From a virus, in IMG/VR virus record IMGVR_UViG_3300047560_001714, positions 64,001 to 128,000 of that record: a stretch of 64,000 nucleotides of DNA; one strand, written 5' to 3'. The notes beneath the pieces were generated by a model that saw only the letters and a program-made list of their open reading frames with translations, was not told the origin of the DNA and made no database searches. Every line of letters begins with the position of its first letter. The stretch's first letter is position 1. A program made the translations under genes and the position numbers. Positions 4,094-17,304 of this stretch are shown in pieces.

Positions 4094-4101
4094 AATATAA
4101 T

Positions 4102-4175
4102 TGGGATATAGTGTAATGGTAACACAACAGATTTTGATTCTGTCATTCTAGGTTCGAGCCCTAGTATCCCTGCCA
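4102..4175 (+). tRNA. tRNA-Gln(TTG)
   Basis: ACAGA-TTTTGAT-TCTGT; U1-U72 mismatch; CCA. Confidence 0.93.
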
Positions 4176-4181
4176 AATGTT

Positions 4182-4277
4182 AGATTAAGATATAACAGGT
4201 TCGAATCCTGTCGTTCAAGGACAACCCCATAGGGGACGACTTACACTTGTGATCAAAGGAGATTTTATCTTAATCTG
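4182..4277 (+). ncRNA. YrlA-like tRNA mimic (variant of the CAGCA-stem family)
   Basis: 11-bp outer stem AGATTAAGATA/TATCTTAATCT + G, enclosing a T-arm (CAGG-TTCGAAT-CCTG) at the 5' side. Confidence 0.55.
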
Positions 4278-4282
4278 TTTTA

Positions 4283-4366
4283 GCTCTGGTGGCGAAATGG
4301 TAAACGCGGTGGTCTTAGAAACCACTACCGAAGGGTTTGGGAGTTCAAGTCTCCCCTAGAGTACCA
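4283..4366 (+). tRNA. tRNA-Leu(TAG)
   Basis: GTGGT-CTTAGAA-ACCAC; variable arm; CCA. Confidence 0.93.
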
Positions 4367-4383
4367 AATAAGACACATTAGGT

Positions 4384-4459
4384 GTGACTATGACGGAATT
4401 GGTAGACGTCCTCGATTGTGATTCGAGATTTTGTGGGTTCAAGTCCCACTAGTCACCCC
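4384..4459 (+). tRNA. tRNA-His(GTG)
   Basis: CTCGA-TTGTGAT-TCGAG; C73; CCA incomplete. Confidence 0.9.
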
Positions 4460-4479
4460 TAATGTGTTTAAAAATGATT

Positions 4480-4554
4480 GTCGCTATCGTCTATCGGTTA
4501 GGACACAAGATTTTCATTCTTGTAAGCGGGGTTCGACTCCCCGTAGCGACGCCA
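4480..4554 (+). tRNA. tRNA-Glu(TTC)
   Basis: CAAGA-TTTTCAT-TCTTG; CCA. Confidence 0.93.
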
Positions 4555-4563
4555 ATTAACAAA

Positions 4564-4640
4564 CTCCCATTAGCGCAGTCTGGTAGCGCGATCCGTTTGG
4601 GGCGGATAGGTCGGCGGTTCGAATCCGTCATGGGAGACCA
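4564..4640 (+). tRNA. tRNA-Pro(TGG)
   Basis: ATCCG-TTTGGGG-CGGAT; CCA. Confidence 0.93.
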
Positions 4641-4645
4641 AATAT

Positions 4646-4708
4646 AGGATGGTAACAGCAAATCTTTAGCCTTAGAATTCGGATCTAAACAGCCTAAACC
4701 CCATCCTG
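4646..4708 (+). ncRNA. CAGCA-stem element E1 (contains Leu-TAG loop heptamer CTTAGAA, weakly stemmed)
   Basis: AGGATGG|TAACAGCAA...CCATCCT|G. Confidence 0.65.
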
Positions 4709-4719
4709 CTTTACAATCT

Positions 4720-4777
4720 AGGATACAACCAGCAACAATTACGCCAGACTGATAATCTGAAAATGTAACGTATCCTG
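4720..4777 (+). ncRNA. CAGCA-stem element E2 with Ile(GAT) anticodon stem-loop
   Basis: AGGATAC|AACCAGCAA...CAGA-CTGATAA-TCTG...GTATCCT|G. Confidence 0.7.
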
Positions 4778-4800
4778 TTTTTATAACTAATCGGACAACT

Positions 4801-5055
4801 ATGAAAGTAACAAAACTTGACAAACGATTTACATTATATCACAGGGGTTATATTCACGCTGTCATTGATGTTGAACAGTATGGTCCATTTATGGATCATG
4901 TTAAAACCTACTTTGCAGATAAAAAACATTTGTATGATTTTACCACCCAACGTAAACGAATTCATGGGTTGCCTTCTTACCGACGCAGTGTAGCTGTAAT
5001 CGGTTTTAGACGCGAAGAAGATTTAACTATGGTCCTATTATCTTTTAACAATTAA
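4801..5055 (+). CDS. Small phage hypothetical protein (paralog of 5751..5990)
   Basis: Shares MK..KLDKR..LY..GY and F.REE.LT..LLS with 5751..5990. Confidence 0.7.
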   Translation: MKVTKLDKRFTLYHRGYIHAVIDVEQYGPFMDHVKTYFADKKHLYDFTTQRKRIHGLPSYRRSVAVIGFRREEDLTMVLLSFNN

Positions 5056-5099
5056 CGATTATTCCAGATTTATCAAAATAAAAACAATAAAGGTACAAT

Positions 5100-5327
5100 A
5101 TGAATAAAGAAGAATTACGCGAAATATTTTCAGAACAAACCACGAAATCGTCATCTGTGATGTTTATGATATCAACTTTAAAAGAAGTAATTGATGATAA
5201 ACAACATATTAGTTTACAAGTGTTAACCACTGAATCTGAAAAAATTGATGAACTGTTAGATAACGAATTGGTGGGATGTGAATTCGAATCATATGTGAAC
5301 GATATTCCAAAGTTCGTAAAACAATAA
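5100..5327 (+). CDS. Hypothetical protein
   Basis: ORF with AAGG Shine-Dalgarno. Confidence 0.55.
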   Translation: MNKEELREIFSEQTTKSSSVMFMISTLKEVIDDKQHISLQVLTTESEKIDELLDNELVGCEFESYVNDIPKFVKQ

Positions 5328-5442
5328 CAAATTATATGGATGAATACCGCATTTTTAGCTGGCTTACGATCGTTCATTATTAACAAATGTCATCGTCGGC
5401 TTGCAGACAAAAATCATCCAGCTTTAACCACAGGATAATATT

Positions 5443-5748
5443 ATGTTTTTTAATAAAGAATTACTAAACCAAATAGCGAAACTCACCACAATCGCTGAAA
5501 AGCTTCACGATGAAAATACAATGATGCGTAACACTTTTACAATGCTTGGGGAAACCATCAAAGAAATGGACGCTAAAATTAGCACATTAGAAGGTGAGGT
5601 TAAGAATTTAAGGACTCTGAATCAACTTGACCACCAGTACCCAATCGCAGTTAATAAGTGGGGAAGATGGAATTCTCACGGAGTTAAGAACCAAACGCCC
5701 CCAGATAAAGATTCTGGATGTAATCGTAAACACTGTGAATGTGACTAA
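5443..5748 (+). CDS. Hypothetical coiled-coil protein
   Basis: AGGA Shine-Dalgarno; heptad pattern. Confidence 0.6.
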   Translation: MFFNKELLNQIAKLTTIAEKLHDENTMMRNTFTMLGETIKEMDAKISTLEGEVKNLRTLNQLDHQYPIAVNKWGRWNSHGVKNQTPPDKDSGCNRKHCECD

Positions 5749-5750
5749 TA

Positions 5751-5990
5751 ATGAAAATTATTAAATTAGATAAACGCCATCGACTTTACTGTGAAGGATA
5801 TCGTTATGCAATTTCTAAAATTTATTTGGATAGAGGTATTGCAAAACATATCCGCAAGTATTATAATAAAGATTCGGAGATATTCAAGCAATATGCAACA
5901 ATCAATCGAACTTTTTTACCTTATGGATACATTGCATTTAAACGTGAAGAACATTTAACGCTGGCGTTGTTATCCTATGAAAATTATTAG
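5751..5990 (+). CDS. Small phage hypothetical protein (paralog of 4801..5055)
   Basis: Shared N- and C-terminal motifs. Confidence 0.7.
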   Translation: MKIIKLDKRHRLYCEGYRYAISKIYLDRGIAKHIRKYYNKDSEIFKQYATINRTFLPYGYIAFKREEHLTLALLSYENY

Positions 5991-6018
5991 TTGACAAATG
6001 AAAATGATGCTGTATAAT
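5991..6018 (+). promoter_or_regulatory. sigma70 promoter for second tRNA cluster
   Basis: TTGACA-16nt-TATAAT, 11 nt before a tRNA. Confidence 0.8.
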
Positions 6019-6029
6019 AGCTAACAAAT

Positions 6030-6106
6030 GGCGGTGTAGCTCAGTTGGTTAGAGCAATCCTTTCATACGGGATAGGTCGTAGGTTCGATTCCTACTGTCG
6101 CCACCA
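6030..6106 (+). tRNA. tRNA-CAT (elongator Met or Ile2)
   Basis: ATCCT-TTCATAC-GGGAT; CCA. Confidence 0.88.
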
Positions 6107-6114
6107 ACTAAATT

Positions 6115-6189
6115 GCCCTTATCGTTTAATGGATAGGACATGGGATTTCTACTCCCAGAATGGAGGTTCGATTCCTTCTAAGGGTGCCA
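6115..6189 (+). tRNA. tRNA-Arg(TCT)
   Basis: TGGGA-TTTCTAC-TCCCA; CCA. Confidence 0.9.
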
Positions 6190-6280
6190 GTGGTGCTAGA
6201 TATGGCCCACGTTAAAAACAGAATATATCAAACTGATTAGTTTGTGGTGTTAGTTGTGACCCACGTTAAAAACAGATAAC
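6190..6280 (+). repeat. Two tandem copies of a preQ1-I-like H-type pseudoknot motif
   Basis: GTGGTG.TAG....G.CCCACGTTAAAAACAGA at 6190 and 6244. Confidence 0.55.
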
Positions 6281-6287
6281 AATTTAT

Positions 6288-6362
6288 GCCCCTATAGCTC
6301 AATGGTAGAGCGTATTCCTCATAAGAATTTGGTTATAGGTTCGAACCCTGTTGGGGGCACCA
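6288..6362 (+). tRNA. tRNA-CAT (Ile2 or elongator Met)
   Basis: ATTC-CTCATAA-GAAT; CCA. Confidence 0.88.
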
Positions 6363-6368
6363 ACAAAT

Positions 6369-6443
6369 ATATCGGTGGTGTAATGGTAACATACGGGCCT
6401 CCAAAGCCTTGAGATTAGGGTTCAAATCCTTACCGGTATGCCA
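6369..6443 (+). tRNA. tRNA-Trp(CCA)
   Basis: GGC-CTCCAAA-GCC; acceptor ATATCGG/CCGGTAT; CCA. Confidence 0.85.
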
Positions 6444-6454
6444 AACAAAAAATA

Positions 6455-6544
6455 GGAAGAGTGGCAGAGTGGTTTAATGCAGCGGTCTTGAAAACCGCCG
6501 ACGGTTAGTCCCGTCCGTGAGTTCGAATCTCACTTCTTCCGCCA
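6455..6544 (+). tRNA. tRNA-Ser(TGA)
   Basis: GCGGT-CTTGAAA-ACCGC; long variable arm; CCA. Confidence 0.93.
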
Positions 6545-6549
6545 AATAT

Positions 6550-6605
6550 TGGATGCTAACAGCAATTACTTATAATTTCTTTTGGTGAAACTTAAATGCA
6601 TCCAG
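6550..6605 (+). ncRNA. CAGCA-stem element E3 with Gln(TTG)-like anticodon stem-loop
   Basis: TGGATGC|TAACAGCAA...TTTC-TTTTGGT-GAAA...GCATCCA|G; near-duplicate of 13935..13990. Confidence 0.7.
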
Positions 6606-6726
6606 CTTAAATAATGTTCTGTCGTATAACAGCTACATAGTAGTGAAATATGTCCCACACCACTGGGGAAGATATTGGTGAAAATCCATTCAGAACTAAC
6701 ATTTCTAAACAACTTGAGAGATTATT

Positions 6727-6996
6727 ATGAAAAAATTACTTTTACTTGCTGGCCTAACTTTATTAGTAACTGGTTGTGCTGCAACCGGTGAATTAGATAC
6801 AGTTCCGGACCGTGTTAACAAACTAGAAGCCGCTGATAAGGTATTCAAAACCGATTTGAAAACTTTAACTGATAAAACCGCATCGTTGACAAATACACAA
6901 CAACAATGTATTAATCATTGTAAACTTTCTTCAAGTCGAATGAACAATTTCGATAGAAAACTTGATAACGCTTTCAACAAAGCACTAATTAAGTAA
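6727..6996 (+). CDS. Small lipoprotein, Lpp/OprI-like coiled coil
   Basis: Signal peptide with lipobox LVTGC; heptad repeats; K-rich C-terminus. Confidence 0.7.
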   Translation: MKKLLLLAGLTLLVTGCAATGELDTVPDRVNKLEAADKVFKTDLKTLTDKTASLTNTQQQCINHCKLSSSRMNNFDRKLDNAFNKALIK

Positions 6997-7067
6997 TTTA
7001 AAAAAATCCTTGACAAATCTATAAACACACACTAGAATAACCTTTTATTTAATTGGAGGTAAACACG

Positions 7068-7265
7068 ATGTCTGAACAACTTAGTAGAATGATGTACACT
7101 GGCTTATTCCTTTTAATATTTGCGGTTATCTGTTCGACGTTTGGTGGATATGTCGTATATAACCACATGAGTAAAAATTATTTCCCAATCCAAGATAGCA
7201 ATATCGGTGGGTTTGTGTTTAGAAAAGGAAAAGTTTATTCATTAGAAGAAGTCAAGGATTTATAA
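7068..7265 (+). CDS. Small single-TM membrane protein
   Basis: GGAGG Shine-Dalgarno; hydrophobic N-terminal helix. Confidence 0.6.
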   Translation: MSEQLSRMMYTGLFLLIFAVICSTFGGYVVYNHMSKNYFPIQDSNIGGFVFRKGKVYSLEEVKDL

Positions 7266-7798
7266 TGAAAACTTTATCAACTATATTTTTTCTATTACTA
7301 TCACACTCAGCGTGTGCTGATGTGGTCAAAGTGATCGATACAAAGACCGGTAATATTGAATTAGTTAAAACACGTTCTTTCTCTCTAGCTAAAAATATAG
7401 ATAAAAAGATTTATTCAAAAGCTGACATAAATCGATTTGTCAAATTAGCATCAATTAAGAACAAGGTTGACGAAAAACTGATTCACGCTGTTATTAAGGC
7501 TGAAAGTAGTTATAGAAAAAATGCAATAAGTAAAGTAGGCGCAGCTGGTTTGATGCAACTCATCCCAGCAACTGCCACTAGATTTGGTGTGACCGACCGA
7601 TTTGATGTTAAACAGAATATTGACGGTGGTACCAAGTATCTTAAATTCCTACTAAATACGTTTAAGAACACACCACTTGCTCTGGCTGGTTATAATGCAG
7701 GGGAAAATGCAGTCATTAAATATAACTACAAAATTCCCAACTACCCAGAAACTAAAAATTATGTTAAAGTGGTGATGGAAAATTACGTAACGGAATAG
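7265..7798 (+). CDS. Soluble lytic transglycosylase with signal peptide
   Basis: IKAESS catalytic Glu, GAAGLMQL, ALAGYNAG, ET..YV. Confidence 0.92.
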   Translation: MKTLSTIFFLLLSHSACADVVKVIDTKTGNIELVKTRSFSLAKNIDKKIYSKADINRFVKLASIKNKVDEKLIHAVIKAESSYRKNAISKVGAAGLMQLIPATATRFGVTDRFDVKQNIDGGTKYLKFLLNTFKNTPLALAGYNAGENAVIKYNYKIPNYPETKNYVKVVMENYVTE

Positions 7799-7801
7799 AC
7801 T

Positions 7802-8563
7802 ATGATAACACTACTTAATATATATAAACAATCACTGTTAATGGCTAAACTAAGTTCATTGGCATATAATACTGACCAATCATTCAAAGATCTCGGATAT
7901 GATAGTAAGTATATATTTAGGAAAGGTTCCGAAGCATATGTTTTGTGGGATAACGACGATTTTATTATAGTTTGTCGTGGTACACAACCAAATAAGTTTG
8001 AAGACATTATAGCTGATATTAGACTCAATTTGGTACCTAGCTATTCTAACCGTGGTAGAGCGCACGCCGGATTTAAACACAGCGTCGATCTATTGTGGCC
8101 AGAACTGGAAAAACTTATTATTAAGTATGGTTCAAACAGAAAAATCTGGTGTACTGGACACAGTCTAGGTGCAGCAATGGCAACATTGATTACAGCAAGG
8201 TTGCCATTATTAAAGACCACTACCCCAACATTATTTACATTTGGTAGCCCTCGTGTTGGCGATGCTGATTTACACGATTATCTAATCGAGTTAGGTGTTG
8301 AACATCATAGATGGGTCAATAATGCGGATATGGTTACACGTAACCCAGTATTCCCATATCGTCATCACGGTATACTATATTATATGAATCATCATGGTGA
8401 ACTTGCCACGATGAGTATAATTAGAACCGCGATTGATAGAATTAAAGGTTTCATTACTGGTATTAAGAAAGGAAAAGTAAATTTCTTTGTTAATCACTTC
8501 ATTGAAAATTATATTAACAACATAGAAAAAATGGTTGATGATGAAAAAAATAGCAATTCCTAA
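7802..8563 (+). CDS. Lipase class 3 family
   Basis: CRGT, TGHSLG nucleophile elbow, FGSPRVG. Confidence 0.92.
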   Translation: MITLLNIYKQSLLMAKLSSLAYNTDQSFKDLGYDSKYIFRKGSEAYVLWDNDDFIIVCRGTQPNKFEDIIADIRLNLVPSYSNRGRAHAGFKHSVDLLWPELEKLIIKYGSNRKIWCTGHSLGAAMATLITARLPLLKTTTPTLFTFGSPRVGDADLHDYLIELGVEHHRWVNNADMVTRNPVFPYRHHGILYYMNHHGELATMSIIRTAIDRIKGFITGIKKGKVNFFVNHFIENYINNIEKMVDDEKNSNS

Positions 8564-8816
8564 TTTTACGGATGATGAATCCGACCCTTTCTGGTGGGAT
8601 AAATTTGCGTCAGACATCGGGTATCTTGACATACAGGAATACCAATATGATGAATATGCAAAAATATTAACGAATAAAGCCAATAACATATTATTAGAAT
8701 ATAATGCCACATTTGAGTTATCACTAATGGCCGATCCAAGTGCTATTTGTGATTATGCAGTTATTACCTTTAAAGATGAAGCAAAGTATAATTGGTTTTT
8801 ACTAAAATACACATAA
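8535..8816 (+). CDS. Small phage hypothetical protein
   Basis: C-terminal F.DE..Y.WFLLKY pattern; overlaps neighbouring genes. Confidence 0.55.
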   Translation: MMMKKIAIPNFTDDESDPFWWDKFASDIGYLDIQEYQYDEYAKILTNKANNILLEYNATFELSLMADPSAICDYAVITFKDEAKYNWFLLKYT

Positions 8817-9490
8817 TGCGGTCGGATGAATATAAAAATAAAATAATAAATAACCTTTCATCACCGTATAGGATTGATAATTTTATAACAGAAACTGAGC
8901 GTAATTTATTAAAAGACTATTTTAACGATAGTTCACATAAAATAATTAAAAATACTGGACCTATTGTACTACATCTATCTGAATATGATTACCAGAATGA
9001 AGTACTGTATGGTATAAAAACTAGAGTTGAGCAATTATTAAATTCATCTGTATATTTTGGGCATTTTTTCTATACGAATCGACCACATATAATTCATAAT
9101 GATGATAGTTTAAGTATCAACGTGCCGTATAAAGGTATAAACATACCAATCGAAACGTGTGAGGAAACATCATTGTGTATTTTTGATCAATTCTACCTAG
9201 ATGGCCCATGTAAATTTTTTAATGGGTCAACTGATATACCAACCTATCATAATTTACAAAAATATGAATATTCTGGTGTTCAAGGATTGGTCGATGGTGA
9301 TTTTGATGAAAGTTTTCGTATAAAACATTTAAACCATTTAGAACCATCATGGTTACAAGGGCTTTCTATAAAAGAAATGATTCAGCAAACCATGAATTGT
9401 GGTATAGTATTTGATACAGTAAACTTACACTGTTCAACAAATTTTAAACAATCCAAACTTGGATTAAGTTTTTTTACACATTTGATATGA
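8816..9490 (+). CDS. Hypothetical, possibly 2OG-Fe(II) oxygenase-like
   Basis: IHND and distal LHC motifs. Confidence 0.5.
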   Translation: MRSDEYKNKIINNLSSPYRIDNFITETERNLLKDYFNDSSHKIIKNTGPIVLHLSEYDYQNEVLYGIKTRVEQLLNSSVYFGHFFYTNRPHIIHNDDSLSINVPYKGINIPIETCEETSLCIFDQFYLDGPCKFFNGSTDIPTYHNLQKYEYSGVQGLVDGDFDESFRIKHLNHLEPSWLQGLSIKEMIQQTMNCGIVFDTVNLHCSTNFKQSKLGLSFFTHLI

Positions 9491-10026
9491 TCAACAAAGA
9501 TGCGTTCTCGAATGGCCAAATTGATAGTAAACTATGGTTATGCCAAGAATTAGAAAATTTAGAATGGACGTCAGAACTAACGCAAATATACGGTGGATGG
9601 TATGGAATTACCGCATTTTTATTATTAAGTCGTGAAAAATTCAAAGTAACGCGCATAGAAAGTTATGATATTGACCCATCGTGTCAGGTTATTGCTGATA
9701 TGATTAATGAAAATTGGGTATTTAAAAATTGGCAATTTAAAGCACATACCGCTGATTGTAATAATATATTAACACAGCCAGATTTAATTATTAATACCTC
9801 AACTGAACATTTTGATGAAATGGACTGGTTTCATAACATAAAACCAGGTACACGAGTGATATTACAAGGCAACAATATGCCACATGACGATCACTTTATA
9901 CACAGTCAATCACTTAAAATGTTTATTGACAACTACCCATTAACTAGTATATACTATACTGGTGAATTAGATTTTAAATACCCATCTTGGGGATTCACTA
10001 GATACATGATTATCGGTGTGAAATAA
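9487..10026 (+). CDS. SAM-dependent methyltransferase-like protein
   Basis: YGGWYG motif I, SYDID, INTSTEH. Confidence 0.65.
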   Translation: MINKDAFSNGQIDSKLWLCQELENLEWTSELTQIYGGWYGITAFLLLSREKFKVTRIESYDIDPSCQVIADMINENWVFKNWQFKAHTADCNNILTQPDLIINTSTEHFDEMDWFHNIKPGTRVILQGNNMPHDDHFIHSQSLKMFIDNYPLTSIYYTGELDFKYPSWGFTRYMIIGVK

Positions 10027-10046
10027 TCATATCACTAAATATTGTT

Positions 10047-10502
10047 ATGTTAAATATATACACAAAAGAATTGATGGGTAGTTTTAAAAATATTAATGAT
10101 AAGATTGACAAATTAAACGAAATTGGTGTAACATATACACGGATTGATCTTGATGGTAGTTACATTGGTGAAATAAAGTTCTTGCATAATGTTCCTTATC
10201 ATGATACAATATCTGTAAATGAAAATACTGAGAATTATCCAGAATTAAGAAACAAGTTTAAACGTGAACATACTCATGATGACTTTGAAATGAGATTATT
10301 CACACACGGTACAGCATCTTTTTTCATAAATGCTAATGATTTAGTTTATGAATTAGTTGTTGGACCAGCTGATTTAATCAGTATACCAGCTAATACCAAA
10401 CATTGGTTCGATGCTGGTGACAACCCAGACTTTTCGGCAATTAGGTTTTTTACAGACGAAGATGGATGGATTGCAAAATATACTGATGAAAAAAATGCTT
10501 GA
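10047..10502 (+). CDS. mtnD: Acireductone dioxygenase (methionine salvage)
   Basis: EHTH.D.E metal motif, GPADLISIPANTKHWF, IRFFTDEDGW. Confidence 0.85.
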   Translation: MLNIYTKELMGSFKNINDKIDKLNEIGVTYTRIDLDGSYIGEIKFLHNVPYHDTISVNENTENYPELRNKFKREHTHDDFEMRLFTHGTASFFINANDLVYELVVGPADLISIPANTKHWFDAGDNPDFSAIRFFTDEDGWIAKYTDEKNA

Positions 10503-10527
10503 CAAGTTAAAAAGATAAGTGTATAAT
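10499..10527 (+). promoter_or_regulatory. sigma70 promoter for tRNA/ncRNA operon
   Basis: TTGACA-17nt-TATAAT. Confidence 0.8.
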
Positions 10528-10544
10528 TTGTCACATATTGAAAC

Positions 10545-10556
10545 AGTTCTTTAACA
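10545..10556 (+). promoter_or_regulatory. rrn-type boxA antitermination-like site
   Basis: AGTTCTTTAACA, 10/12 match to E. coli TGCTCTTTAACA, in the transcript leader. Confidence 0.5.
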
Positions 10557-10562
10557 AATTAT

Positions 10563-10639
<77 letters not shown>

Positions 10640-10643
10640 ATAT

Positions 10644-10775
10644 AGGATCTTAACAGCATATTCTATTTGCCTTCTAAGCACGAGATGTGGGTTCGAATCC
10701 CACACGTAATTTGCGGACTAATGTAGCAAATAACGTTAGCTTAACGGGATAGAGCACGATAAAAATAAGATCCTG
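10644..10775 (+). ncRNA. CAGCA-stem element E5: circularly permuted tRNA-Arg(TCT)-like body
   Basis: AGGATCT|TAACAGCAT, TGC-CTTCTAA-GCA, T-arm GTGGGTTCGAATCCCAC, closed acceptor hairpin, D-arm TAGCTTAACGGGATAGAGC, AGATCCT|G. Confidence 0.75.
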
Positions 10776-10783
10776 ACCCTTAT

Positions 10784-10900
10784 AGGTTTCTAACAGCAAG
10801 TATTATGGGGATCGGAAATGGTAGGTTCGAGTCCTACTATGCAGTCGTATGATTGCATAAGGGCTACGGGTGGTGCCGCCGATTATAAAAATGAAACCTG
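10784..10900 (+). ncRNA. CAGCA-stem element E6: YrlA-like (T-arm, closed acceptor, D-arm)
   Basis: AGGTTTC|TAACAGCAA, ATCGG/CCGAT, GTAGGTTCGAGTCCTAC, TATGCAGTC-GTAT-GATTGCATA, GAAACCT|G. Confidence 0.75.
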
Positions 10901-10909
10901 TTAATTTTA

Positions 10910-11025
10910 TGAATGCTAACAGCAATTTAATAACACCTGACGTGTCGTGAGTTCGAATCTCACCGTGTAAGTAATTACACGTAGCTCAGTTGGTAGAGCA
11001 TCTGGCCATAAAAAAATGCATTCAG
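10910..11025 (+). ncRNA. CAGCA-stem element E7: YrlA-like (T-arm, closed acceptor, D-arm)
   Basis: TGAATGC|TAACAGCAA, GTGAGTTCGAATCTCAC, CGTGTAA-GTAA-TTACACG, TAGCTCAGTTGGTAGAGCA, GCATTCA|G. Confidence 0.8.
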
Positions 11026-11034
11026 TATATATTT

Positions 11035-11096
11035 TGGTTGTTTTCAGCAATTTTAAAGATTCGATTTCTTATTTTTCCCAGGTGGGATACAACCAG
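11035..11096 (+). ncRNA. CAGCA-stem element E8 (T-loop-like hairpin)
   Basis: TGGTTGT|TTTCAGCAA...AAGA-TTCGATT-TCTT...ACAACCA|G. Confidence 0.6.
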
Positions 11097-11343
11097 TAAC
11101 TTTTGACTTTTGGTAACACTATGTTTATACTTATTACTGCTGAATCAATTATATTATTATTAACAATATACTTTGGTTGGCGTATTTGGACAAAGATTTC
11201 AAACAAAATTACGGAGTTTTTCAAATGACTACTGATACATCGGATGATGAAGCTGTTTTAACAATGGACCCCGAAACTTTTGCAAAACTGTTTCGAGATG
11301 AACTTGAAAAGCTTAAACAAAAGCAGAACGACGCACAATAATT

Positions 11344-11430
11344 GGAAGGTTGCCAGAATGGTATTGGAGCGGATTGCTAATCCGTCAACGGGAAACCGTT
11401 GTATAGGTTCGAACCCTATACCTTCCGCCA
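11344..11430 (+). tRNA. tRNA-Ser(GCT)
   Basis: GCGGA-TTGCTAA-TCCGT; long variable arm; CCA. Confidence 0.93.
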
Positions 11431-11443
11431 ATTACCTATAAAT

Positions 11444-11510
11444 TGGATACATACAGCATATTTAAAATCACTGCAAATGACCTTTCCGGGTGATAACCGG
11501 AGGTATCCAG
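11444..11510 (+). ncRNA. CAGCA-stem element E9 with Cys(GCA) and Ile(GAT)-like anticodon hairpins
   Basis: TGGATAC|ATACAGCAT...TCA-CTGCAAA-TGA...TCCGG-GTGATAA-CCGGA...GTATCCA|G. Confidence 0.7.
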
Positions 11511-11532
11511 ATTAAATTTTAAGGAGACATTT

Positions 11533-11760
11533 ATGAGAATAGTAGTCCCAGCGTACCACGTACCAGTTGTTGCAAATTATATTTCAAGAGCACCATATGT
11601 AATTTGCCCAAAAGATGCGTTGGTATTAAATCGTTATGATGTTGGAACACAAAAAGAAACTGCTGATGTATTATTCTATACATTATATGCAGGTGGTGGG
11701 ATACATATGCATCGCGTTAAAGATGTGTCTGAAATAAACACAATAAACGTATACGCATAA
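11533..11760 (+). CDS. Hypothetical protein
   Basis: AAGGAG Shine-Dalgarno. Confidence 0.6.
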   Translation: MRIVVPAYHVPVVANYISRAPYVICPKDALVLNRYDVGTQKETADVLFYTLYAGGGIHMHRVKDVSEINTINVYA

Positions 11761-11784
11761 AAATTTAACAATAAAAAATAATAT

Positions 11785-11859
11785 TCCCTAATAGCTCAGT
11801 GGTAGAGCAGACGGCTGTTAACCGTCCGGTCGGTGGTTCGAGCCCATCTTAGGGAGCCA
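11785..11859 (+). tRNA. tRNA-Asn(GTT)
   Basis: GACGG-CTGTTAA-CCGTC; CCA. Confidence 0.95.
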
Positions 11860-11883
11860 ATTTAACATTAAAAAGGAAATGCT

Positions 11884-12036
11884 ATGAGCAATTGGCACGG
11901 TGGAAAGGGTTCTAAACAACGACCCTTTGATAGACAAAAATTTTCAGACAACTGGGACGCTATCTTTAAAAAAACCCCAGATAACGTCCAAGAAAATAAA
12001 CCAAACCAAGAAAAAGATGACAATGAAAAAAAATAA
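11884..12036 (+). CDS. Small phage protein (GGKGS..RP...NWD.IF type)
   Basis: AAGGA Shine-Dalgarno; 50 aa MSNWHGGKGSKQRPFDRQKFSDNWDAIFKK... Confidence 0.65.
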   Translation: MSNWHGGKGSKQRPFDRQKFSDNWDAIFKKTPDNVQENKPNQEKDDNEKK

Positions 12037-13540
12037 AATAGTAATTGTCGGGGGCGGTTCAGCTGGATGGATTACGTTATCATATTTATCAGCAACCACC
12101 GACGCTGAACTAGTATTAATCCACTCAAATGAAATCGATTCTATTGGAGTTGGCGAAAGCACAACACCAACTATTAAACATATTGCGGAAACCGTTGGCG
12201 TACCGGAATACGAATGGATGAAACAATCCAAAGCAACATTTAAATACGGTGTTGATTTCCATGACTTTAACAGTTTAGGTTCACGATGGGTACATACCTT
12301 TGATGATATGATACCACATCAGGCATTTACTAGACCATTATGCGATAATGGTAAAGAAGAATTTAAACGTGATTTGACTAGTGTTGATTATTTTTTACAT
12401 CATTATGGTAAAGATGTTTCATTATTTAACGAAACCCATGGACCACAAGAATACTTGATAAAAAATAAATTAAGTCCATTTAATAAAAATGGAATTAACA
12501 ATATAAACAAATTTCCAGGATATGGGTATCATGTTAATGCATTTGAATTTGGAAAATGTTTAAAAAATCACGTACCAGAAACCCGATATGAAGAAATAAA
12601 CGCAACCATAATTGAAGTTGTAGAAAATAATGATGGTATTGAGTACGTTGTATTAGACACTGGTGAAAAAATCTATGGTGATATATTCTTTGATTGCTCT
12701 GGGTTTACTAGGGTACTTATGAAAAATCTATCAACCTGGGATTCATATACTGAATTAGTAAATGACCGTGCAATATGGGGTGAAATTCATAATGTTACCT
12801 CAGACGAACCAGTTACGGGTGTATATGCGCAAGAATCAGGATGGATATGGACTATCCCAACATGGAACCAAATTGGTTCTGGGTATGTATATTCTAATAA
12901 ATTTAGTTCTGATGAACGGGCCGAAGAAGTAATTACAGACTTTTGGCGTGAACGTGGTTACAAATTTGTTAAAAGAAAACAAGTTGCGTTTGACGCCGGA
13001 AGATTAAACAATGTTACATTTAAAAATGTAATTAGCAATGGATTGGCCCAAAGTTTTATAGAACCATTGGAAGCCACCAGCTTAATGATTACGTGCGTAA
13101 CAGTACGCAGTTTTAGTGATTTATACAATAAGCATAAAATATGGAGTGCAAAAACTAGTTCAATTCATGATCGAATAATGAAACGGTTTATTGACCATAC
13201 TAAAAAGTTTGTTCTATATCATTATAGACTATCTGAAAGAATAGATACACCATATTGGCGGTCAGTTGGTAACGATCCAACCGCAGTGCAAGAGGTATCT
13301 GATTATATAGATATTTTGGCATCAAGTAAATGGGTTGGCAAAGGGGATACCCTATTGAATCAATGGAACTGGGTAAGTATGCTCCTTGGCTTTAATAAAA
13401 AATATACTAATAAATTAAAATCAGATGTTGACATTGACGATTATTTATTATATAATAAAACCTTAATTTATCATTACCAGTCATTAGTTGGTCAAAATAT
13501 TCCAATACTTGATTTGTTAAATAAAATTAATAATACTTGA
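12017..13540 (+). CDS. Tryptophan halogenase-like flavin-dependent enzyme
   Basis: GGGSAGW, GVGEST, DCSGF, GWIWTIP, FIEPLEATS; true start at 12017 or 12023. Confidence 0.88.
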   Translation: MTMKKNKIVIVGGGSAGWITLSYLSATTDAELVLIHSNEIDSIGVGESTTPTIKHIAETVGVPEYEWMKQSKATFKYGVDFHDFNSLGSRWVHTFDDMIPHQAFTRPLCDNGKEEFKRDLTSVDYFLHHYGKDVSLFNETHGPQEYLIKNKLSPFNKNGINNINKFPGYGYHVNAFEFGKCLKNHVPETRYEEINATIIEVVENNDGIEYVVLDTGEKIYGDIFFDCSGFTRVLMKNLSTWDSYTELVNDRAIWGEIHNVTSDEPVTGVYAQESGWIWTIPTWNQIGSGYVYSNKFSSDERAEEVITDFWRERGYKFVKRKQVAFDAGRLNNVTFKNVISNGLAQSFIEPLEATSLMITCVTVRSFSDLYNKHKIWSAKTSSIHDRIMKRFIDHTKKFVLYHYRLSERIDTPYWRSVGNDPTAVQEVSDYIDILASSKWVGKGDTLLNQWNWVSMLLGFNKKYTNKLKSDVDIDDYLLYNKTLIYHYQSLVGQNIPILDLLNKINNT

Positions 13541-13565
13541 CATTATAAATAAATACTGATATAAT
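13537..13565 (+). promoter_or_regulatory. sigma70 promoter
   Basis: TTGACA-17nt-TATAAT. Confidence 0.75.
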
Positions 13566-13576
13566 AGGTACATAAA

Positions 13577-13765
13577 ATGACAGTAGCTAGTAAAGCAAAC
13601 CGAAAAGCGAATCCGCTTAAAACTAAAAATGACAAAACACGTATTAACGTGTTAAGTGACAAACAGTTAGTATTAGCATTAGAAAAAGCAACACGCGGCC
13701 GTGATAAATCAAAAATCAGAAGTCGTATTGCATTTAAACTTAAAAATCATTCACAACAACCCTAG
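13577..13765 (+). CDS. Small basic hypothetical protein
   Basis: ORF directly after promoter. Confidence 0.6.
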   Translation: MTVASKANRKANPLKTKNDKTRINVLSDKQLVLALEKATRGRDKSKIRSRIAFKLKNHSQQP

Positions 13766-13774
13766 AGGTGTATT

Positions 13775-13921
13775 ATGGCAGTAGAAGTAAAAAAATGTAA
13801 TTGCAGTGGTTCACTAGCGGCTAAGTTCCAAGATAAAGAATATGGTCAAGGAATGCGCGTTATGAATCAAACCTTGAAAAAAGAATACAATTGTACAGTT
13901 TGTGGTGCAAAACACAAATAG
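13775..13921 (+). CDS. Small Zn-binding protein (CxC...QD..YG.G.RV.N...CxxC)
   Basis: GAGG Shine-Dalgarno; 48 aa with CNC and CTVC. Confidence 0.65.
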   Translation: MAVEVKKCNCSGSLAAKFQDKEYGQGMRVMNQTLKKEYNCTVCGAKHK

Positions 13922-13934
13922 TTACACCTAATTT

Positions 13935-13990
13935 TGGATGCTAACAGCAATTACTTATAATTTCTTTTGGTGAAAATAAAATGCATCCAG
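13935..13990 (+). ncRNA. CAGCA-stem element E10 (Gln-TTG-like loop; duplicate of E3)
   Basis: TGGATGC|TAACAGCAA...TTTC-TTTTGGT-GAAA...GCATCCA|G. Confidence 0.7.
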
Positions 13991-14003
13991 CATAAATTAA
14001 TAT

Positions 14004-14079
14004 GCCACCGTAGCTCAATCGGTAGAGCGCCTCACTTGTAATGAGGATGTTGAGGGTTCGATTCCTTTCGGTGGCTCCA
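14004..14079 (+). tRNA. tRNA-Thr(TGT)
   Basis: CCTCA-CTTGTAA-TGAGG; CCA. Confidence 0.95.
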
Positions 14080-14102
14080 TTCACAATAACTTAAATGATC
14101 TT

Positions 14103-14309
14103 ATGACACCGGAACCAGACGATTTAGAAAACATTTTAAATAATCTTACTGATGACGATTTCGACAGCATCAACGAATCTATAAATTCTGACATTGACGA
14201 CGAGTTCGACGACGATGAGGAACTGTCGATTGAAGAAATGAAAGATATTTGGGGCGTAGACTTTGATGACGATGATTTAGACCCATTTGATATCCCTGGC
14301 GACAGGTGA
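14103..14309 (+). CDS. Very acidic small protein
   Basis: D/E-rich 68-aa ORF. Confidence 0.55.
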   Translation: MTPEPDDLENILNNLTDDDFDSINESINSDIDDEFDDDEELSIEEMKDIWGVDFDDDDLDPFDIPGDR

Positions 14310-14319
14310 TAACCACTTT

Positions 14320-14376
14320 TGGATACTTACAGCATATTAACTTCGACTTGAAACTTGAAAACAACTATGTATCCAG
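14320..14376 (+). ncRNA. CAGCA-stem element E11 with Ser(TGA)-like loop
   Basis: TGGATAC|TTACAGCAT...TTCGA-CTTGAAAC-TTGAA...GTATCCA|G. Confidence 0.65.
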
Positions 14377-14400
14377 AATTAAACATGTAGTGTAATCTGA

Positions 14401-14471
14401 GCGGGATTGGTATATAGGTTGTGCCTTAGCCTTCCAAGCTAATGAAACGAGTTCGACTCTCGTATCCCGCT
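14401..14471 (+). tRNA. tRNA-Gly(TCC), no encoded CCA
   Basis: TTAGC-CTTCCAA-GCTAA; U73; acceptor stem extended by flanking inverted repeat. Confidence 0.88.
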
Positions 14472-14498
14472 CAGATTACAATCCGTGTAACTCTTACA

Positions 14499-14688
14499 AG
14501 AATAGTTTCAGCAACATACTACAAATAACTTACTGGAAATGGTATTTTATCGTGGGTTTTAGCCCAACAAAACCGATGGAATATCTAGTGTTGGTAGAAT
14601 ACCAAATAGGCTAGTAGAATACTAGATAGGATCTGGTTGGGTAGACCGAGACTGACTGAAAACTAATTTCACCCAAAAAGCTATTCTG
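14499..14688 (+). ncRNA. CAGCA-stem element E12 (long, multi-hairpin)
   Basis: AGAATAG|TTTCAGCAA...CTATTCT|G; internal hairpins TTGGTA-GAA-TACCAA and CTAGTA-GAA-TACTAG. Confidence 0.6.
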
Positions 14689-14716
14689 TTTCCTTTAACC
14701 TTACAATGAGAAAAAT

Positions 14717-14989
14717 ATGTCTAATATTACAGCAAACCATATCTTAGTAGAAACGCTTGAACAAGCACAAGACTTACAACGCCAGTTATCGGAAGGCGCA
14801 TCATTCTCAGACTTAGCAAAATCTCACAGCAAATGTCCGAGTGGTACACGTGGCGGTGATTTAGGTTCATTTGGTAGAGGCCAAATGGTACCAGAATTTG
14901 AAAATGCCGCATTTGGCTTAGATGTCGGTGGGTTTAGTGAACCAGTACAAACACAATTTGGATACCATTTAATTAATCGCACCGCTTAA
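14717..14989 (+). CDS. ppiC: Parvulin-type peptidyl-prolyl isomerase
   Basis: HILV, F.DLAK.HS.CPSG..GGDLG, MVPEFE.AAF, TQFGYHLI. Confidence 0.93.
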   Translation: MSNITANHILVETLEQAQDLQRQLSEGASFSDLAKSHSKCPSGTRGGDLGSFGRGQMVPEFENAAFGLDVGGFSEPVQTQFGYHLINRTA

Positions 14990-14990
14990 T

Positions 14991-15278
14991 ATGGATTACA
15001 CTGTATTATATGATCGGGTTTTAATTAAACCGATTGAAGAAAACAAAACATTAAGTTCTGGTATTGTTTTAGTAGCAGAACAAAAAAGTACAACCACCAC
15101 TGGTACAGTAATTGCAATTGGTGATGGAAAACAGTATGATAATGGTAAGATAATCCCATTAACAGTCCAAGTTGATGATAATGTGTTATTCATGAAAAAT
15201 ACCGGTATCCCAACTAAATTAGATGGCGTTGAATATCTTATCTTGCGAGAATCAGAAATTCTTGGTATCATAGAATAA
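14991..15278 (+). CDS. groES: Co-chaperonin GroES
   Basis: LYDRVLIK, SGIVL, GTVIAIGDG, ILRESEILG. Confidence 0.93.
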   Translation: MDYTVLYDRVLIKPIEENKTLSSGIVLVAEQKSTTTTGTVIAIGDGKQYDNGKIIPLTVQVDDNVLFMKNTGIPTKLDGVEYLILRESEILGIIE

Positions 15279-15291
15279 AATATAGTATTAA

Positions 15292-15387
15292 AGGTTAATT
15301 TCCGCATACCATTTTTCTCCAGAGATGTACAAGACCCCATTGATCAGTGGTGAGATATGAAAAATCTCAAATATGATCATTAACCTG
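15292..15387 (+). ncRNA. CAGCA-stem element E13 (CCGCA variant) with Phe(GAA)-like loop
   Basis: AGGTTAA|TTTCCGCAT...TGAGAT-ATGAAAA-ATCTCA...TTAACCT|G. Confidence 0.6.
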
Positions 15388-15402
15388 ATTACCCATACCA
15401 AT

Positions 15403-15477
15403 GCACCAGTGACAGAATGGCTATGTAGCAGTCTGCAAAACTGTTTAATGCAGGTTCGACTCCTGTCTGGTGCTCCA
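15403..15477 (+). tRNA. tRNA-Cys(GCA)
   Basis: GCAGT-CTGCAAA-ACTGT; U73; CCA. Confidence 0.93.
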
Positions 15478-15508
15478 AATAAATATGTTATAAACTAGGA
15501 GTATTGAC

Positions 15509-15808
15509 ATGCATCACGAACGATTATCAGAATATGCTGTAATCAGAGATAAACTTTCAACCCGCCGGGCATTTTTATTACATCTCATCGATGAGGATTC
15601 ATATGAACTTGTTGGAATCGTAAACTTTGAAACCGGCGAATTCCAAACAGAAAATATCGTTGAACCGGAGCACGATTTAGATGATTACCCATTTCTTTAT
15701 ACTGTAAAGGATACAGATTGGTATTGTCATCCAGATGATCACGACGCAATGATTAAAAAATATGCGGAAGAAAGTCTTAAAGAAACATTTAAAAAATTAA
15801 ATATTTAA
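15509..15808 (+). CDS. Hypothetical protein
   Basis: AGGAG Shine-Dalgarno. Confidence 0.65.
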   Translation: MHHERLSEYAVIRDKLSTRRAFLLHLIDEDSYELVGIVNFETGEFQTENIVEPEHDLDDYPFLYTVKDTDWYCHPDDHDAMIKKYAEESLKETFKKLNI

Positions 15809-15814
15809 TTTTAC

Positions 15815-15842
15815 TTGACAACCGCCAAAAACCTGGTATAAT
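15815..15842 (+). promoter_or_regulatory. sigma70 promoter of the TROVE/Ro60-like gene
   Basis: TTGACA-16nt-TATAAT. Confidence 0.8.
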
Positions 15843-15851
15843 TACCCACAT

Positions 15852-15887
15852 AGATTAGATACAGCAACTATTTTTTACACTAAACTG
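15852..15887 (+). promoter_or_regulatory. Minimal CAGCA-stem element E14 in the 5' UTR of the TROVE gene (candidate autoregulatory site)
   Basis: AGATTAG|ATACAGCAA...CTAAACT|G (6/7 bp), immediately before Shine-Dalgarno AAGGTG. Confidence 0.65.
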
Positions 15888-15900
15888 AAAGGTGAATTAC

Positions 15901-17304
15901 ATGACATTAATTGCAGAAAAAACAACAACAACAACAACAAATGGTATGGCGGCGTTAAACACATCAACGACAGCCCTTACCGATTTATTCTTTAACATTG
16001 GTGCTATGCGTGGTAAAGATATTATTCCACAATTCACCAGTGCATTATCTGAAAATCGTGAGTTAGCATTACGAATTGCACTATGGTCGCGTGATGCTCG
16101 TGGTGGCGCTGGTGAAAGACAACTTTTCAGAGATATTCTAAATCATTTAGAAAACACCGATGTTTCCGCCGCCGAAGCATTAGCAAACCGCGTTGGTGAA
16201 TTGGGCAGATGGGATGATTTGTTTGTGTTTAAAACCAAACATATGAAAGAATTTGGGTTTGAGTTAATTAAACAAGCGTTGGCAGCTAAGAATGGATTGG
16301 CAGCTAAATGGACCCCACGTAAAGGACCAATTTCGGTTGAATTACGCAAATACTTGGGTTGGAGTCCAAAGCATTATCGTAAAACATTGGTGGCATTGAC
16401 ATCAGTGGTTGAAACCCAAATGTGTGCTAATGATTGGGATAACATCAATTTCAGCCACGTGCCATCTGTTGCTAGTGCTAGATACAAAAAAGCTTTCAAT
16501 AGACATACACCTAAGTTTGCTGAATATGTTAATGCACTGGTTTCTGGTGATACATCAGTTAAAGTCAATGCTGGTGCAATCTATCCATATGATGTTTTAA
16601 GTGCGTTGAAAGGTTATAATGTTGATTCAACGATTAAAAACCATGTTATTGCACAATGGGCCGCATTACCAAACTTTGTTGGTGACGCTAATATTTTACC
16701 ATTAGTTGACGTTAGTGGTTCTATGTCGTGTTCAGCGGGTGGTAAAAACGCATCTCTAACTTGTATGGATGTTGCAGTTTCCCTTGGGTTGTATCTTTCA
16801 GATAAAAACTTAGGTGAATTCAAAAACAAGTTTATTACGTTTCATGAAAAACCAGAATTGATAACACTTGAAGGGGATATTGTTCAACAGAACCAGCAAA
16901 TGCTAAGATCAAAATGGGGCATGAGTACAAACTTGGAATCAGCATTTAACTTGATTTTAAATTTAGCAACCAGTTGCAATGTTCGTAACGCAGATATGCC
17001 AGAAATTTTGTTGATTTTATCGGATATGCAATTTAACCAGGCGGTTACATCTCCAAGTGATACCGCAATGGAAATGATTGAACGTGCATATGCCGCTGCT
17101 GGATATTCTGTTCCTAAAATTGTATTCTGGAATTTAAATGCAAGTGGGAATGTCCCAGTAACATCGGATAAATCTGGCGCAGCATTGGTATCTGGGTTCT
17201 CACCATCAATTATGACTAGTTTATTATCTGCCGATATGTCTGAGTTTACACCATACGGCATTATGATTAAAACAATCATGAATGAACGGTATGACCACCA
17301 GTAA
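15901..17304 (+). CDS. TROVE/Ro60-like protein with vWA domain (DUF2828-type)
   Basis: RDARGGAGER, GRWDDL, AAKWTPR, VNAGAIYPYD, VDVSGSM (MIDAS), LSDMQF, IVFWNL; start ATG 15901. Confidence 0.85.
   Translation: MTLIAEKTTTTTTNGMAALNTSTTALTDLFFNIGAMRGKDIIPQFTSALSENRELALRIALWSRDARGGAGERQLFRDILNHLENTDVSAAEALANRVGELGRWDDLFVFKTKHMKEFGFELIKQALAAKNGLAAKWTPRKGPISVELRKYLGWSPKHYRKTLVALTSVVETQMCANDWDNINFSHVPSVASARYKKAFNRHTPKFAEYVNALVSGDTSVKVNAGAIYPYDVLSALKGYNVDSTIKNHVIAQWAALPNFVGDANILPLVDVSGSMSCSAGGKNASLTCMDVAVSLGLYLSDKNLGEFKNKFITFHEKPELITLEGDIVQQNQQMLRSKWGMSTNLESAFNLILNLATSCNVRNADMPEILLILSDMQFNQAVTSPSDTAMEMIERAYAAAGYSVPKIVFWNLNASGNVPVTSDKSGAALVSGFSPSIMTSLLSADMSEFTPYGIMIKTIMNERYDHQ

Follow-up and report, generated by a model that had tools for sequence, protein, structure and literature searches.

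A 64,000-nucleotide stretch of viral DNA (the window: bases 64,001–128,000 of IMG/VR contig IMGVR_UViG_3300047560_001714, which has 187,935 bp at 36% G+C) carries 14 small elements that are all closed in the same way, by a 7-bp stem with a single-stranded CAGCA or CCGCA motif past its 5′ arm and one unpaired G after its 3′ arm. We call this common terminus the handle and the sequence that it encloses the cargo. The elements lie among tRNA genes and, in one case, in the leader of a gene for a DUF2828 protein with a predicted Ro60 fold. They are real, selected RNA structures, and they form an undescribed Y-RNA-like family tied to DUF2828 Ro60-fold proteins across phages. Reading from sequence, we consider it likely, with a probability of about 0.72, that the Ro60-like protein binds the handle and regulates itself through the leader. 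Ro60 with its Y RNAs is a textbook ribonucleoprotein, and what it does in bacteria and viruses is only beginning to be understood. For the very large DUF2828 family no RNA partner was known until now, and the handle is a concrete, testable candidate.

A conserved handle with a covarying stem

We scanned both strands of the window by script for [7-bp perfect stem]-N3-C[AC]GCA-(≤300 nt)-[complement]-G. The scan returned 13 perfect copies on the + strand and none on the − strand, against a mean of 0.36 ± 0.59 copies (maximum 3) in 200 shuffles. All 13 are intergenic and confined to 4646–15387; in a looser scan of the whole 187,935-bp genome, copies with a WGRWU stem start were confined to this same stretch. 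A leader copy with one mismatch brings the family to 14, with sizes of 36–190 nt. The original prediction, made from the letters of the window, had counted 13 elements: twelve of its starts are perfect copies, the one at 15852 carries an A·A mismatch, and a copy at 5337–5421 had been overlooked. Its sizes, fixed 3′ G and intergenic positions were all correct.

This phage and its relatives supplied 247 unique copies for the consensus. A U-rich 5′ flank precedes the stem, A(87%)-G(96%)-G/A-A/U-U(96%)-N-N, and the 5′ arm is followed by the loop U-W-A, the single-stranded CAGCA and, in 87%, an A. Next are a G-poor linker of about 10 bases and the cargo, then an A-rich stretch leading into the 3′ arm, the one unpaired G and U-U. 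Conservation is concentrated in CAGCAA, the 3′ G and stem positions 2 and 5; the scan demands the 3′ G, which is equally invariant in distant-phage copies found without that demand.

As first proposed, the stem changes sequence and keeps pairing. We aligned 48 distinct copies from the window, from IMG/VR relatives, from mycobacteriophage Finnry and from Citrobacter phage Ci1, the Straboviridae (T4-like) phage that is the closest protein match. All 336 of 336 stem cells are paired, six of the seven stem pairs show double-sided changes, and covariation scores 0.603; shuffles score 0.162, with none of 500 as high, and slid partners at most 0.134. This alignment was fitted to the model and is to that extent biased towards pairing; scan-based and distant-phage copies agree with it without any model. 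Between lineages the stems are wholly different (AGGAUNN, GUGGACG, AGACCGU, AUGGUAC, AAGACAC and others), and W-A-CAGCAA and the 3′ G are kept.

These data bear on the idea that the elements are functionless as RNA, being decaying tRNA-gene remnants or mobile DNA repeats with terminal inverted repeats. Their cargoes are indeed tRNA pieces, the copies at 6550 and 13935 are near-duplicates, and phage tRNA regions often contain homing endonuclease genes. Differing sequences that go on pairing would not, however, be expected of remnants or DNA repeats. The compensatory stem changes around a fixed CAGCAA and G, the strict confinement to one strand, and a design kept across phages whose protein is only 28–48% identical make this account very improbable.

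No Rfam family covers the CAGCAA handle in the window, in the region at E ≤10 or in the relatives' loci; at gathering thresholds, the window and seven relatives' loci yielded tRNAs and Polynucleobacter-1 RNA and nothing else. The open-access literature that we searched held no published description of it, in keeping with the earlier suspicion that the system is undescribed. Several known structures were considered and set aside. A kink-turn was rejected because the 3′ strand beside the stem is A-rich, without G for sheared G·A pairs; RNase III sites, because the stems are too short; and terminators, because no U run follows the stem and the loops span 20–170 nt. Split or permuted tRNA precursors are unlikely, as loop-closed acceptor stems leave no aminoacylatable end.

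The handle accompanies a Ro60-like gene

The gene at 15901–17304 (+ strand) encodes a 467-aa protein with DUF2828 and DUF7788 (vWA, with a DxSxS MIDAS motif). It belongs to phrog_850, annotated as "RNA-binding protein" in PHROGs (E 3.4e-136 across residues 5–465), and Pfam returned DUF7788 and DUF2828 only (PF25043, E 1.6e-48; PF11443, E 7.6e-19). The DUF2828 family comprises 6,090 clusters at 50% identity, with homologs in 710 phage records. An AlphaFold model built from 55 homologs, across which the vWA MIDAS residues D270, S272 and S274 are invariant, reached a predicted local distance difference test score of 91. Its 12 best Foldseek matches in the PDB were all Ro60 and ran along the full protein, at E 4e-11 to 5e-7. 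Among them are human and Xenopus Ro60, Deinococcus Rsr and the Ro60 of Thermus phage phiLo; template-modelling (TM) scores were 0.44–0.63, except for the Deinococcus entry at 0.35–0.37. The fold search thus supports the initial description of the protein as Ro60-like. The protein gave no Pfam match to PF05731 (TROVE), phmmer against the PDB found no Ro60, and an ESM Atlas search returned the protein's own family and nothing else. On the evidence of the model, we assign the DUF2828 protein a predicted Ro60 fold in a separate sequence family, not as a sequence-level TROVE member. The gene has its own perfect sigma-70-type promoter at 15815–15842 (+ strand; TTGACA-16-TATAAT, with TG), and an intrinsic terminator at 17312–17338 (+ strand; 8-bp GC-rich stem at 17312–17330 and a T run) closes the single-gene unit.

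Starting from the gene, we sampled 80 IMG/VR loci whose protein is 63–70% identical. Perfect handles number 336 on the strand of the gene and 8 on the other, with 3 in shuffled sequence. At least one handle is present in 78 of the 80, and 157 handles lie no more than 500 nt upstream of the gene. Citrobacter phage Ci1, at 48% protein identity, has four handles among its tRNAs. We then searched the whole records of ten distant phages (28–43% identity) by covariance model and script. Eight carry handles about 1 kb or less from the gene and on its strand: Mycobacterium phage Finnry, Felix O1a, Campylobacter F367, Listeria LP-Mix_6.2, Staphylococcus S-CoN_Ph5, Bacillus Thrax1, Enterococcus VRE9_1 and Fusobacterium phiKSUM. 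In Finnry, one handle wraps a YrlA-like core that the Rfam YrlA model matches. A small panel of five gene-less phages, T4, T5, RB69, RB49 and 44RR2.8t (796 kb in total), gave no handle match better than E 0.33. Co-occurrence of handle and DUF2828 gene across phage diversity, which the original prediction had named as a check, is borne out.

Starting from the RNA, a scan of IMG/VR for the 5′ half of the handle gave 119 loci, and the 3′ arm and G were complete in 90. In 36 of these 90 the gene lies within the stretch of about 9 kb, on the same strand every time. It was found elsewhere on the contig in 17 of 30 further complete-handle loci, among them every one of the four contigs with a completeness of 90% or more. 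Among 5′-pattern matches lacking the 3′ arm, by contrast, the gene was in the stretch in 2 of 29 and elsewhere in 1 of 18 contigs searched whole, and it was present in none of the four near-complete contigs of this kind. Because the handle sits beside the Ro60-like gene in very different phages, the 14 RNAs are probably that protein's partner RNAs.

The same distribution weighs on a different account, in which the handle is a processing or punctuation signal for nucleases (RNase P, E, III or a phage endonuclease) that cut the tRNA-operon transcripts and the leader, and the Ro60-like protein is not its binder. The elements do lie 4–13 nt from tRNA ends within tRNA operons, and a 7-bp stem followed by a single unpaired 3′ base looks like an acceptor stem and its discriminator. 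U is also common at −1 among the 247 copies, the base that RNase P favours there. A processing signal leaves unexplained, however, why the handle is kept beside the DUF2828 gene, on the same strand, in eight unrelated host groups, and why it is absent from the tRNA clusters of T4, T5, RB69, RB49 and 44RR2.8t. No tRNA stands between handle and gene in the Fusobacterium and Staphylococcus phages, the stem is too short for RNase III, and CAGCAA has no known role in tRNA processing. We regard this account as improbable.

Binding by the Ro60-like protein is argued for most strongly, if indirectly, by the gene's own leader. In 58 of the 77 relatives with enough upstream sequence, a perfect handle ends 12–28 nt ahead of the ATG (12–16 nt in 57), and its terminal G runs straight into the Shine-Dalgarno sequence, as G-AAAGGA or G-UGAGG. 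In Campylobacter F367 a handle lies 19 nt ahead of the ATG. The window copy (15852–15887, + strand; 36 nt, almost cargo-free; AGATTAG-ata-CAGCAA...CTAAACT-G) has the same layout, with G at 15887, the Shine-Dalgarno sequence AAAGGUG, and the ATG 14 nt on at 15901. A copy of the presumed target set against the presumed binder's own ribosome-binding site is a classic sign of translational self-repression, and it is the strongest indirect argument that the DUF2828 protein reads the handle. The presumed target beside the ribosome-binding site resembles the self-repression of T4 gp32, RegA, ribosomal proteins and threonyl-tRNA synthetase; unlike in those systems, the window's leader copy is imperfect and regulation is read from the layout.

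Another conserved factor could instead bind the handle, such as a phage ligase or repair enzyme for RNA, a host enzyme that works on tRNA or an RRM protein, with the Ro60-like protein acting on the cargo or on other RNAs. Genes for RNA ligase, phosphoesterase and Pth2 cluster nearby, and canonical Ro60 threads single-stranded ends through its ring and might bind elsewhere on the RNAs. The dictyostelid Class I RNAs, which share the handle (see below), are reported to bind an RRM protein, Rnp1A (PMC7919456). Yet the DUF2828 gene alone accompanies the handle in all sampled lineages, the ligase and other neighbours vary, and a handle against the DUF2828 gene's own Shine-Dalgarno sequence fits self-regulation best. 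A different binder thus seems to us a poor bet.

Several observations weigh against binding and self-regulation by the Ro60-like protein, in addition to the alignment bias and the small gene-less panel given above. The window's leader copy carries the mismatch (AGATTAG/CTAAACT), fold prediction gave it no fold of its own, and it scored 21.5 bits (E 0.07) against a covariance model built from other copies. Ci1 has its handles among the tRNAs, and its gene leader shows no clear copy. In Vibrio VH7D the best handles are 8 kb off the gene, in Salmonella 7t3 they are not near it, and in one 75%-complete contig a handle is present and the gene was not seen. A profile search did return Ro60 as its top four matches, at a marginal E of 0.02–0.08 and over the vWA part only. 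Finally, the handle UUACAGCAA...UG is unlike the known Ro60 site, GNCGAA or GGUCCGA.

tRNA-like cargoes and comparable RNAs

We numbered the 13 perfect copies, all on the + strand, in order along the window; bit scores are from the covariance model. Three tandem elements past tRNA-Met hold tRNA bodies ordered as T arm, loop-closed acceptor stem and D arm, an order judged from sequence reading, predicted folds and partial YrlA matches. Handle RNA 5 (10644–10775, 132 nt) begins 4 nt past tRNA-Met, with a perfect promoter upstream at 10499–10527. Its cargo, a rearranged tRNA-like body, combines a CUUCUAA loop resembling an anticodon loop with the T arm GUGGG-UUCGAAU-CCCAC, a long closed hairpin of acceptor type and a D arm. 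Handle RNA 6 (10784–10900, 117 nt, 22.6 bits) runs from an inner stem AUCGG/CCGAU through a T arm GUAGG-UUCGAGU-CCUAC and a 9-bp closed acceptor-like hairpin to a D-arm-like region. Handle RNA 7 (10910–11025, 116 nt, 27.6 bits) has the YrlA-type order of T arm GUGAG-UUCGAAU-CUCAC, 7-bp acceptor closed by GUAA, and D arm AGCUCAGUUGGUAGAGCA. The predicted folds of the three are far stabler than shuffles (z −4.35, −4.03 and −2.4). Rfam YrlA (RF02553) matches the core only, at 10943–10999 (37.7 bits, E 2e-5, model positions 27–81 of 114) and at 10684–10755 (21.8 bits), against a gathering score of 69. The claim of tRNA-mimic cargo is thus supported by three YrlA-type cores, with Rfam matches that are sub-threshold and limited to the core.

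Short elements mostly have a single hairpin as cargo. Among 93 unique short copies, clade-wide, fold prediction gave 29 hairpins with 7-nt loops, where shuffles gave 3.8 ± 1.6. In 25 of the 29, loop position 2 is U and position 6 a purine (the U33/R37 signature; 0.7 in shuffles). Orthologous copies in related phages are not independent, so these figures exaggerate how many separate events there were. In 21 of the 29 the stem has exactly 5 bp, and the commonest loops are CUUUUAA and CUUGUAA. Loop length, U33/R37 and 5-bp stems together constitute an anticodon-arm signature. In the window it is found in the 7-nt loops at 4646 (UCG), 4720 (GAU) and 11444 (GAU), and the copy at 15292 (GAA) fits apart from an A replacing U33. 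Of these loops, only those at 4720, 11444 and 15292 (GAU, GAU, GAA) name amino acids, Ile and Phe, without a gene among the phage's 17 tRNAs.

Handle RNA 1 (4646–4708, 63 nt, 54.1 bits; AGGATGG-taa-CAGCAA...CCATCCT-G) begins 5 nt past tRNA-Pro and encloses a 5-bp stem with the 7-nt anticodon-arm-like loop AUUCGGA. Close behind it, handle RNA 2 (4720–4777, 58 nt, 53.5 bits; AGGATAC-aac-CAGCAA...GTATCCT-G) carries the hairpin CAGA-CUGAUAA-UCUG, which resembles an anticodon loop. The overlooked handle RNA 3 (5337–5421, 85 nt, 23.0 bits; TGGATGA-ata-CCGCA...TCATCCA-G) is an intergenic CCGCA variant. Handle RNA 4 (6550–6605, 56 nt, 62 bits; TGGATGC-taa-CAGCAA...GCATCCA-G) begins 5 nt past tRNA-Ser, and its near-duplicate, handle RNA 10 (13935–13990, 56 nt, 63.8 bits), has tRNA-Thr 13 nt downstream. 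Beyond the tandem trio, handle RNA 8 (11035–11096, 62 nt, 51.1 bits; TGGTTGT-ttt-CAGCAA...ACAACCA-G) holds two hairpins, AAGA-UUCGAUU-UCUU and UCCC-AGGU-GGGA. Handle RNA 9 (11444–11510, 67 nt, 48.8 bits; TGGATAC-ata-CAGCAT...GTATCCA-G) begins 13 nt past tRNA-Ser and encloses the anticodon-arm-like hairpin UCCGG-GUGAUAA-CCGGA. Handle RNA 11 lies at 14320–14376 (57 nt, 59.4 bits; TGGATAC-tta-CAGCAT...GTATCCA-G). Downstream of tRNA-Gly, handle RNA 12 (14499–14688, 190 nt; AGAATAG-ttt-CAGCAA...CTATTCT-G) has a large, multi-hairpin cargo of unassigned kind. Handle RNA 13 (15292–15387, 96 nt; AGGTTAA-ttt-CCGCA...TTAACCT-G), the other CCGCA variant, includes the hairpin UGAGAU-AUGAAAA-AUCUCA and has tRNA-Cys 15 nt downstream.

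Relatives show two further cargoes near the gene. Many of their leader handles (for example L011 ~2514 and L012 ~1680) enclose a conserved hairpin with a 9-nt loop, A(C/A)GCAUAUC, seen in 10 unique copies. At L046:6112–6396 and 17 other loci, a handle just upstream of the leader copy wraps a conserved, structured cargo of 230–285 nt, which covaries in 10 of 22 predicted pairs and has no Rfam match. The window has no clear equivalent, and the 190-nt cargo at 14499–14688 may be distantly related to it.

The system recalls Ro60/Rsr and its Y RNAs in several respects. The protein is, by fold match, a ring-shaped HEAT-repeat and vWA protein, and, as in Ro60 systems, RNA genes adjoin the protein gene and the RNAs have a terminal stem and a conserved single-stranded motif on the 5′ side. 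Three of the 14 elements share the YrlA order of T arm, closed acceptor and D arm; RNA-ligase genes are linked, and the RNAs are encoded beside a Ro60-type gene, here of DUF2828 type. Unlike Ro60, the phage protein is not TROVE at the sequence level, its Pfam domains being DUF2828 and DUF7788. YrlA, known from bacteria and mycobacteriophages, was defined by Chen et al. (2014), with the motif GNCGAA as the proposed Ro60 site (PMC4201824); as noted at the outset of this work, the CAGCAA handle differs from that bacterial site. All phage copies read UWA-C(A/C)GCA(A/U) with a 3′ G, not GNCGAA(N)G or CGAA, and none reaches the YrlA gathering score of 69 over the whole model, the match being to the tRNA-like core only. 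Ro60 systems have 1–2 RNAs, whereas here there are up to 14–16 per genome, most cargoes are anticodon arms or other folds rather than tRNA bodies, and a handle stands in the gene leader. The canonical-TROVE Ro60 of Thermus phage phiLo binds two Y-like RNAs with CGAA, Yrl1 and Yrl2, and damps host PNPase (Hu et al. 2025; PMC12135203).

A second likeness is to a eukaryotic RNA class. Dictyostelid Class I RNAs (RF01414; Kjellin et al. 2021, PMC7919456) are about 60 nt long, have many genes per genome, and are described as unique to Dictyostelia. A short covarying stem joins their ends, with an 11-nt unstructured motif past the 5′ arm and a variable interior; they start AAG and end CUGU, an upstream promoter element of their own precedes them, and Rnp1A, an RRM protein, is reported as a direct binder (PMC7919456). 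Four proteins have been reported as associated with DdR-21. Two published sequences, GUUGAC-CUUA-CAGCAA...GUCAAC-UG and GGUCGUC-UUA-CAGCAA...GAAGACC-UG, illustrate the end-to-end alignment of these RNAs with phage copies, in which neither CAGCA nor the terminal G varies. Both kinds have the covarying end stem, the CCUUACAGCAA motif past the 5′ arm and the end CUG(U), and the Class I start AAG and end CUGU agree with the phage consensus A-G...C-U-G-U. The Class I RNAs differ in being eukaryotic, in a stem register off by one base, in the RRM protein as reported direct binder, and in their upstream DUSE promoter element, where phage copies have bacterial-type promoters. The Rfam Class I model (gathering score 41.5 bits) had no match on the window copies at E ≤10 and gave 18.7 bits on a relative's leader copy at L046:6407–6461; Rfam Y_RNA likewise had no match on the region at E ≤10. 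Judged by their sequences, the phage handle and the Class I RNAs are closely alike in design, a match that could explain an RNA class in Dictyostelium that has gone without a known function for 20 years. The supplement to the Class I survey contains complete-handle outgroup candidates from Arabidopsis (GTTTTC-ATTA-CAGCAA...GAAAAC-TG) and Capsaspora, which its authors dropped because they have no promoter element (PMC7919456). Since DUF2828 papers concern plants, plants appear to have the DUF2828 family.

We propose that the 14 elements would be Y-RNA-like small RNA genes, one of them an mRNA leader, with the common handle as the putative docking site of the phage Ro60-like ring protein. One ring protein would carry many RNAs with tRNA-part cargoes, either YrlA-type tRNA bodies with a closed acceptor stem or isolated anticodon arms. 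The RNAs would share strong early-type promoters with the tRNAs, and the host's tRNA-processing nucleases would release them from the transcript. Free protein could shut off its own translation through the leader handle abutting the Shine-Dalgarno sequence, and protein level would thereby match the RNA pool. More tentatively, the particles might show tRNA look-alikes to host factors such as anticodon nucleases, modification or decay enzymes, or PNPase, as decoys or sponges, or might serve as a platform for the neighbouring tRNA-repair genes. We think it somewhat doubtful, though conceivable, that they act as decoys or sponges against tRNA-targeting host factors. Less likely still is the fullest version, a display system in which the ring holds out tRNA bodies and anticodon arms to tRNA-targeting immune nucleases and tRNA enzymes of the host, as decoys or sponges, and the Class I RNAs are likewise partners of DUF2828-type proteins in an ancient ribonucleoprotein. 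If true, it would be a new class of RNA-based anti-defence, built on an ancient ribonucleoprotein whose handle is shared by viruses and eukaryotes.

The anticodon-arm cargoes bring the system into the active field of tRNA-targeting immunity. In the PhageMaP preprint, Bas63 gp130, a Felix-type Ro60-like protein, counters Ppl defence (PMC11482910), and the handle opens a route to the mechanism of this reported effect. The authors guessed that the downstream "tRNA genes" include Y RNAs, of which none was identified (PMC11482910). The handle family also explains much unannotated intergenic sequence in phage tRNA clusters.

Genomic setting

A near-identity DNA search of 50,697 deposited phage records returned no close relative of this T4-like phage, the matches being to tRNA only. 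All 17 tRNA genes of the genome lie at window positions 4009–15477 on the + strand, interspersed with small open reading frames and seven perfect sigma-70-type promoters. Upstream of this region is an above-threshold match to Polynucleobacter-1 RNA (2034–2177, + strand; 53.6 bits against an Rfam gathering score of 37). The region also encodes a tryptophan-halogenase-like protein (12023–13540; phrog_2928, E 9e-97), a parvulin-type peptidyl-prolyl isomerase (14717–14989) and a Cpn10/GroES homolog (14991–15278).

Other phages offer further details of annotation and gene order. A 114-nt "tRNA-Pseudo" 3′ of the gene in Ci1 was considered as a handle RNA and rejected, being a tRNA with an insertion. 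In Listeria phage LP-Mix_6.2, a ROOL RNA (L085:1–460, 88.8 bits, cut off by the locus end) is followed by tRNA-Met, three handle RNAs, the DUF2828 gene and an RtcB-type ligase. The annotated 45-aa "hypothetical protein" F367_017 of Campylobacter F367 overlaps two handle RNAs (L084:1325–1462), and handles in Enterococcus VRE9_1 and mycobacteriophage Finnry likewise lie under small open reading frame calls; such calls are probably annotation errors. Two IMG/VR contigs (L132/G011 and L159/G025) have the DUF2828 gene in two parts, covering query residues ~5–139 and 122–465 and lying 1–2 kb apart, which could be an insertion, an intron or a split gene.

Across other phages, tRNAs and genes for RtcB or other RNA ligases and phosphoesterases flank the DUF2828 gene. 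In the window, a tRNA-related block at 17702–21109, 3′ of the Ro60-like gene, comprises a Pth2 peptidyl-tRNA hydrolase (17702–18169), YqeY (18474–18911) and an Rnl1-type RNA ligase (20210–21109), and an AMP-binding fragment follows the ligase at 21111–21746.

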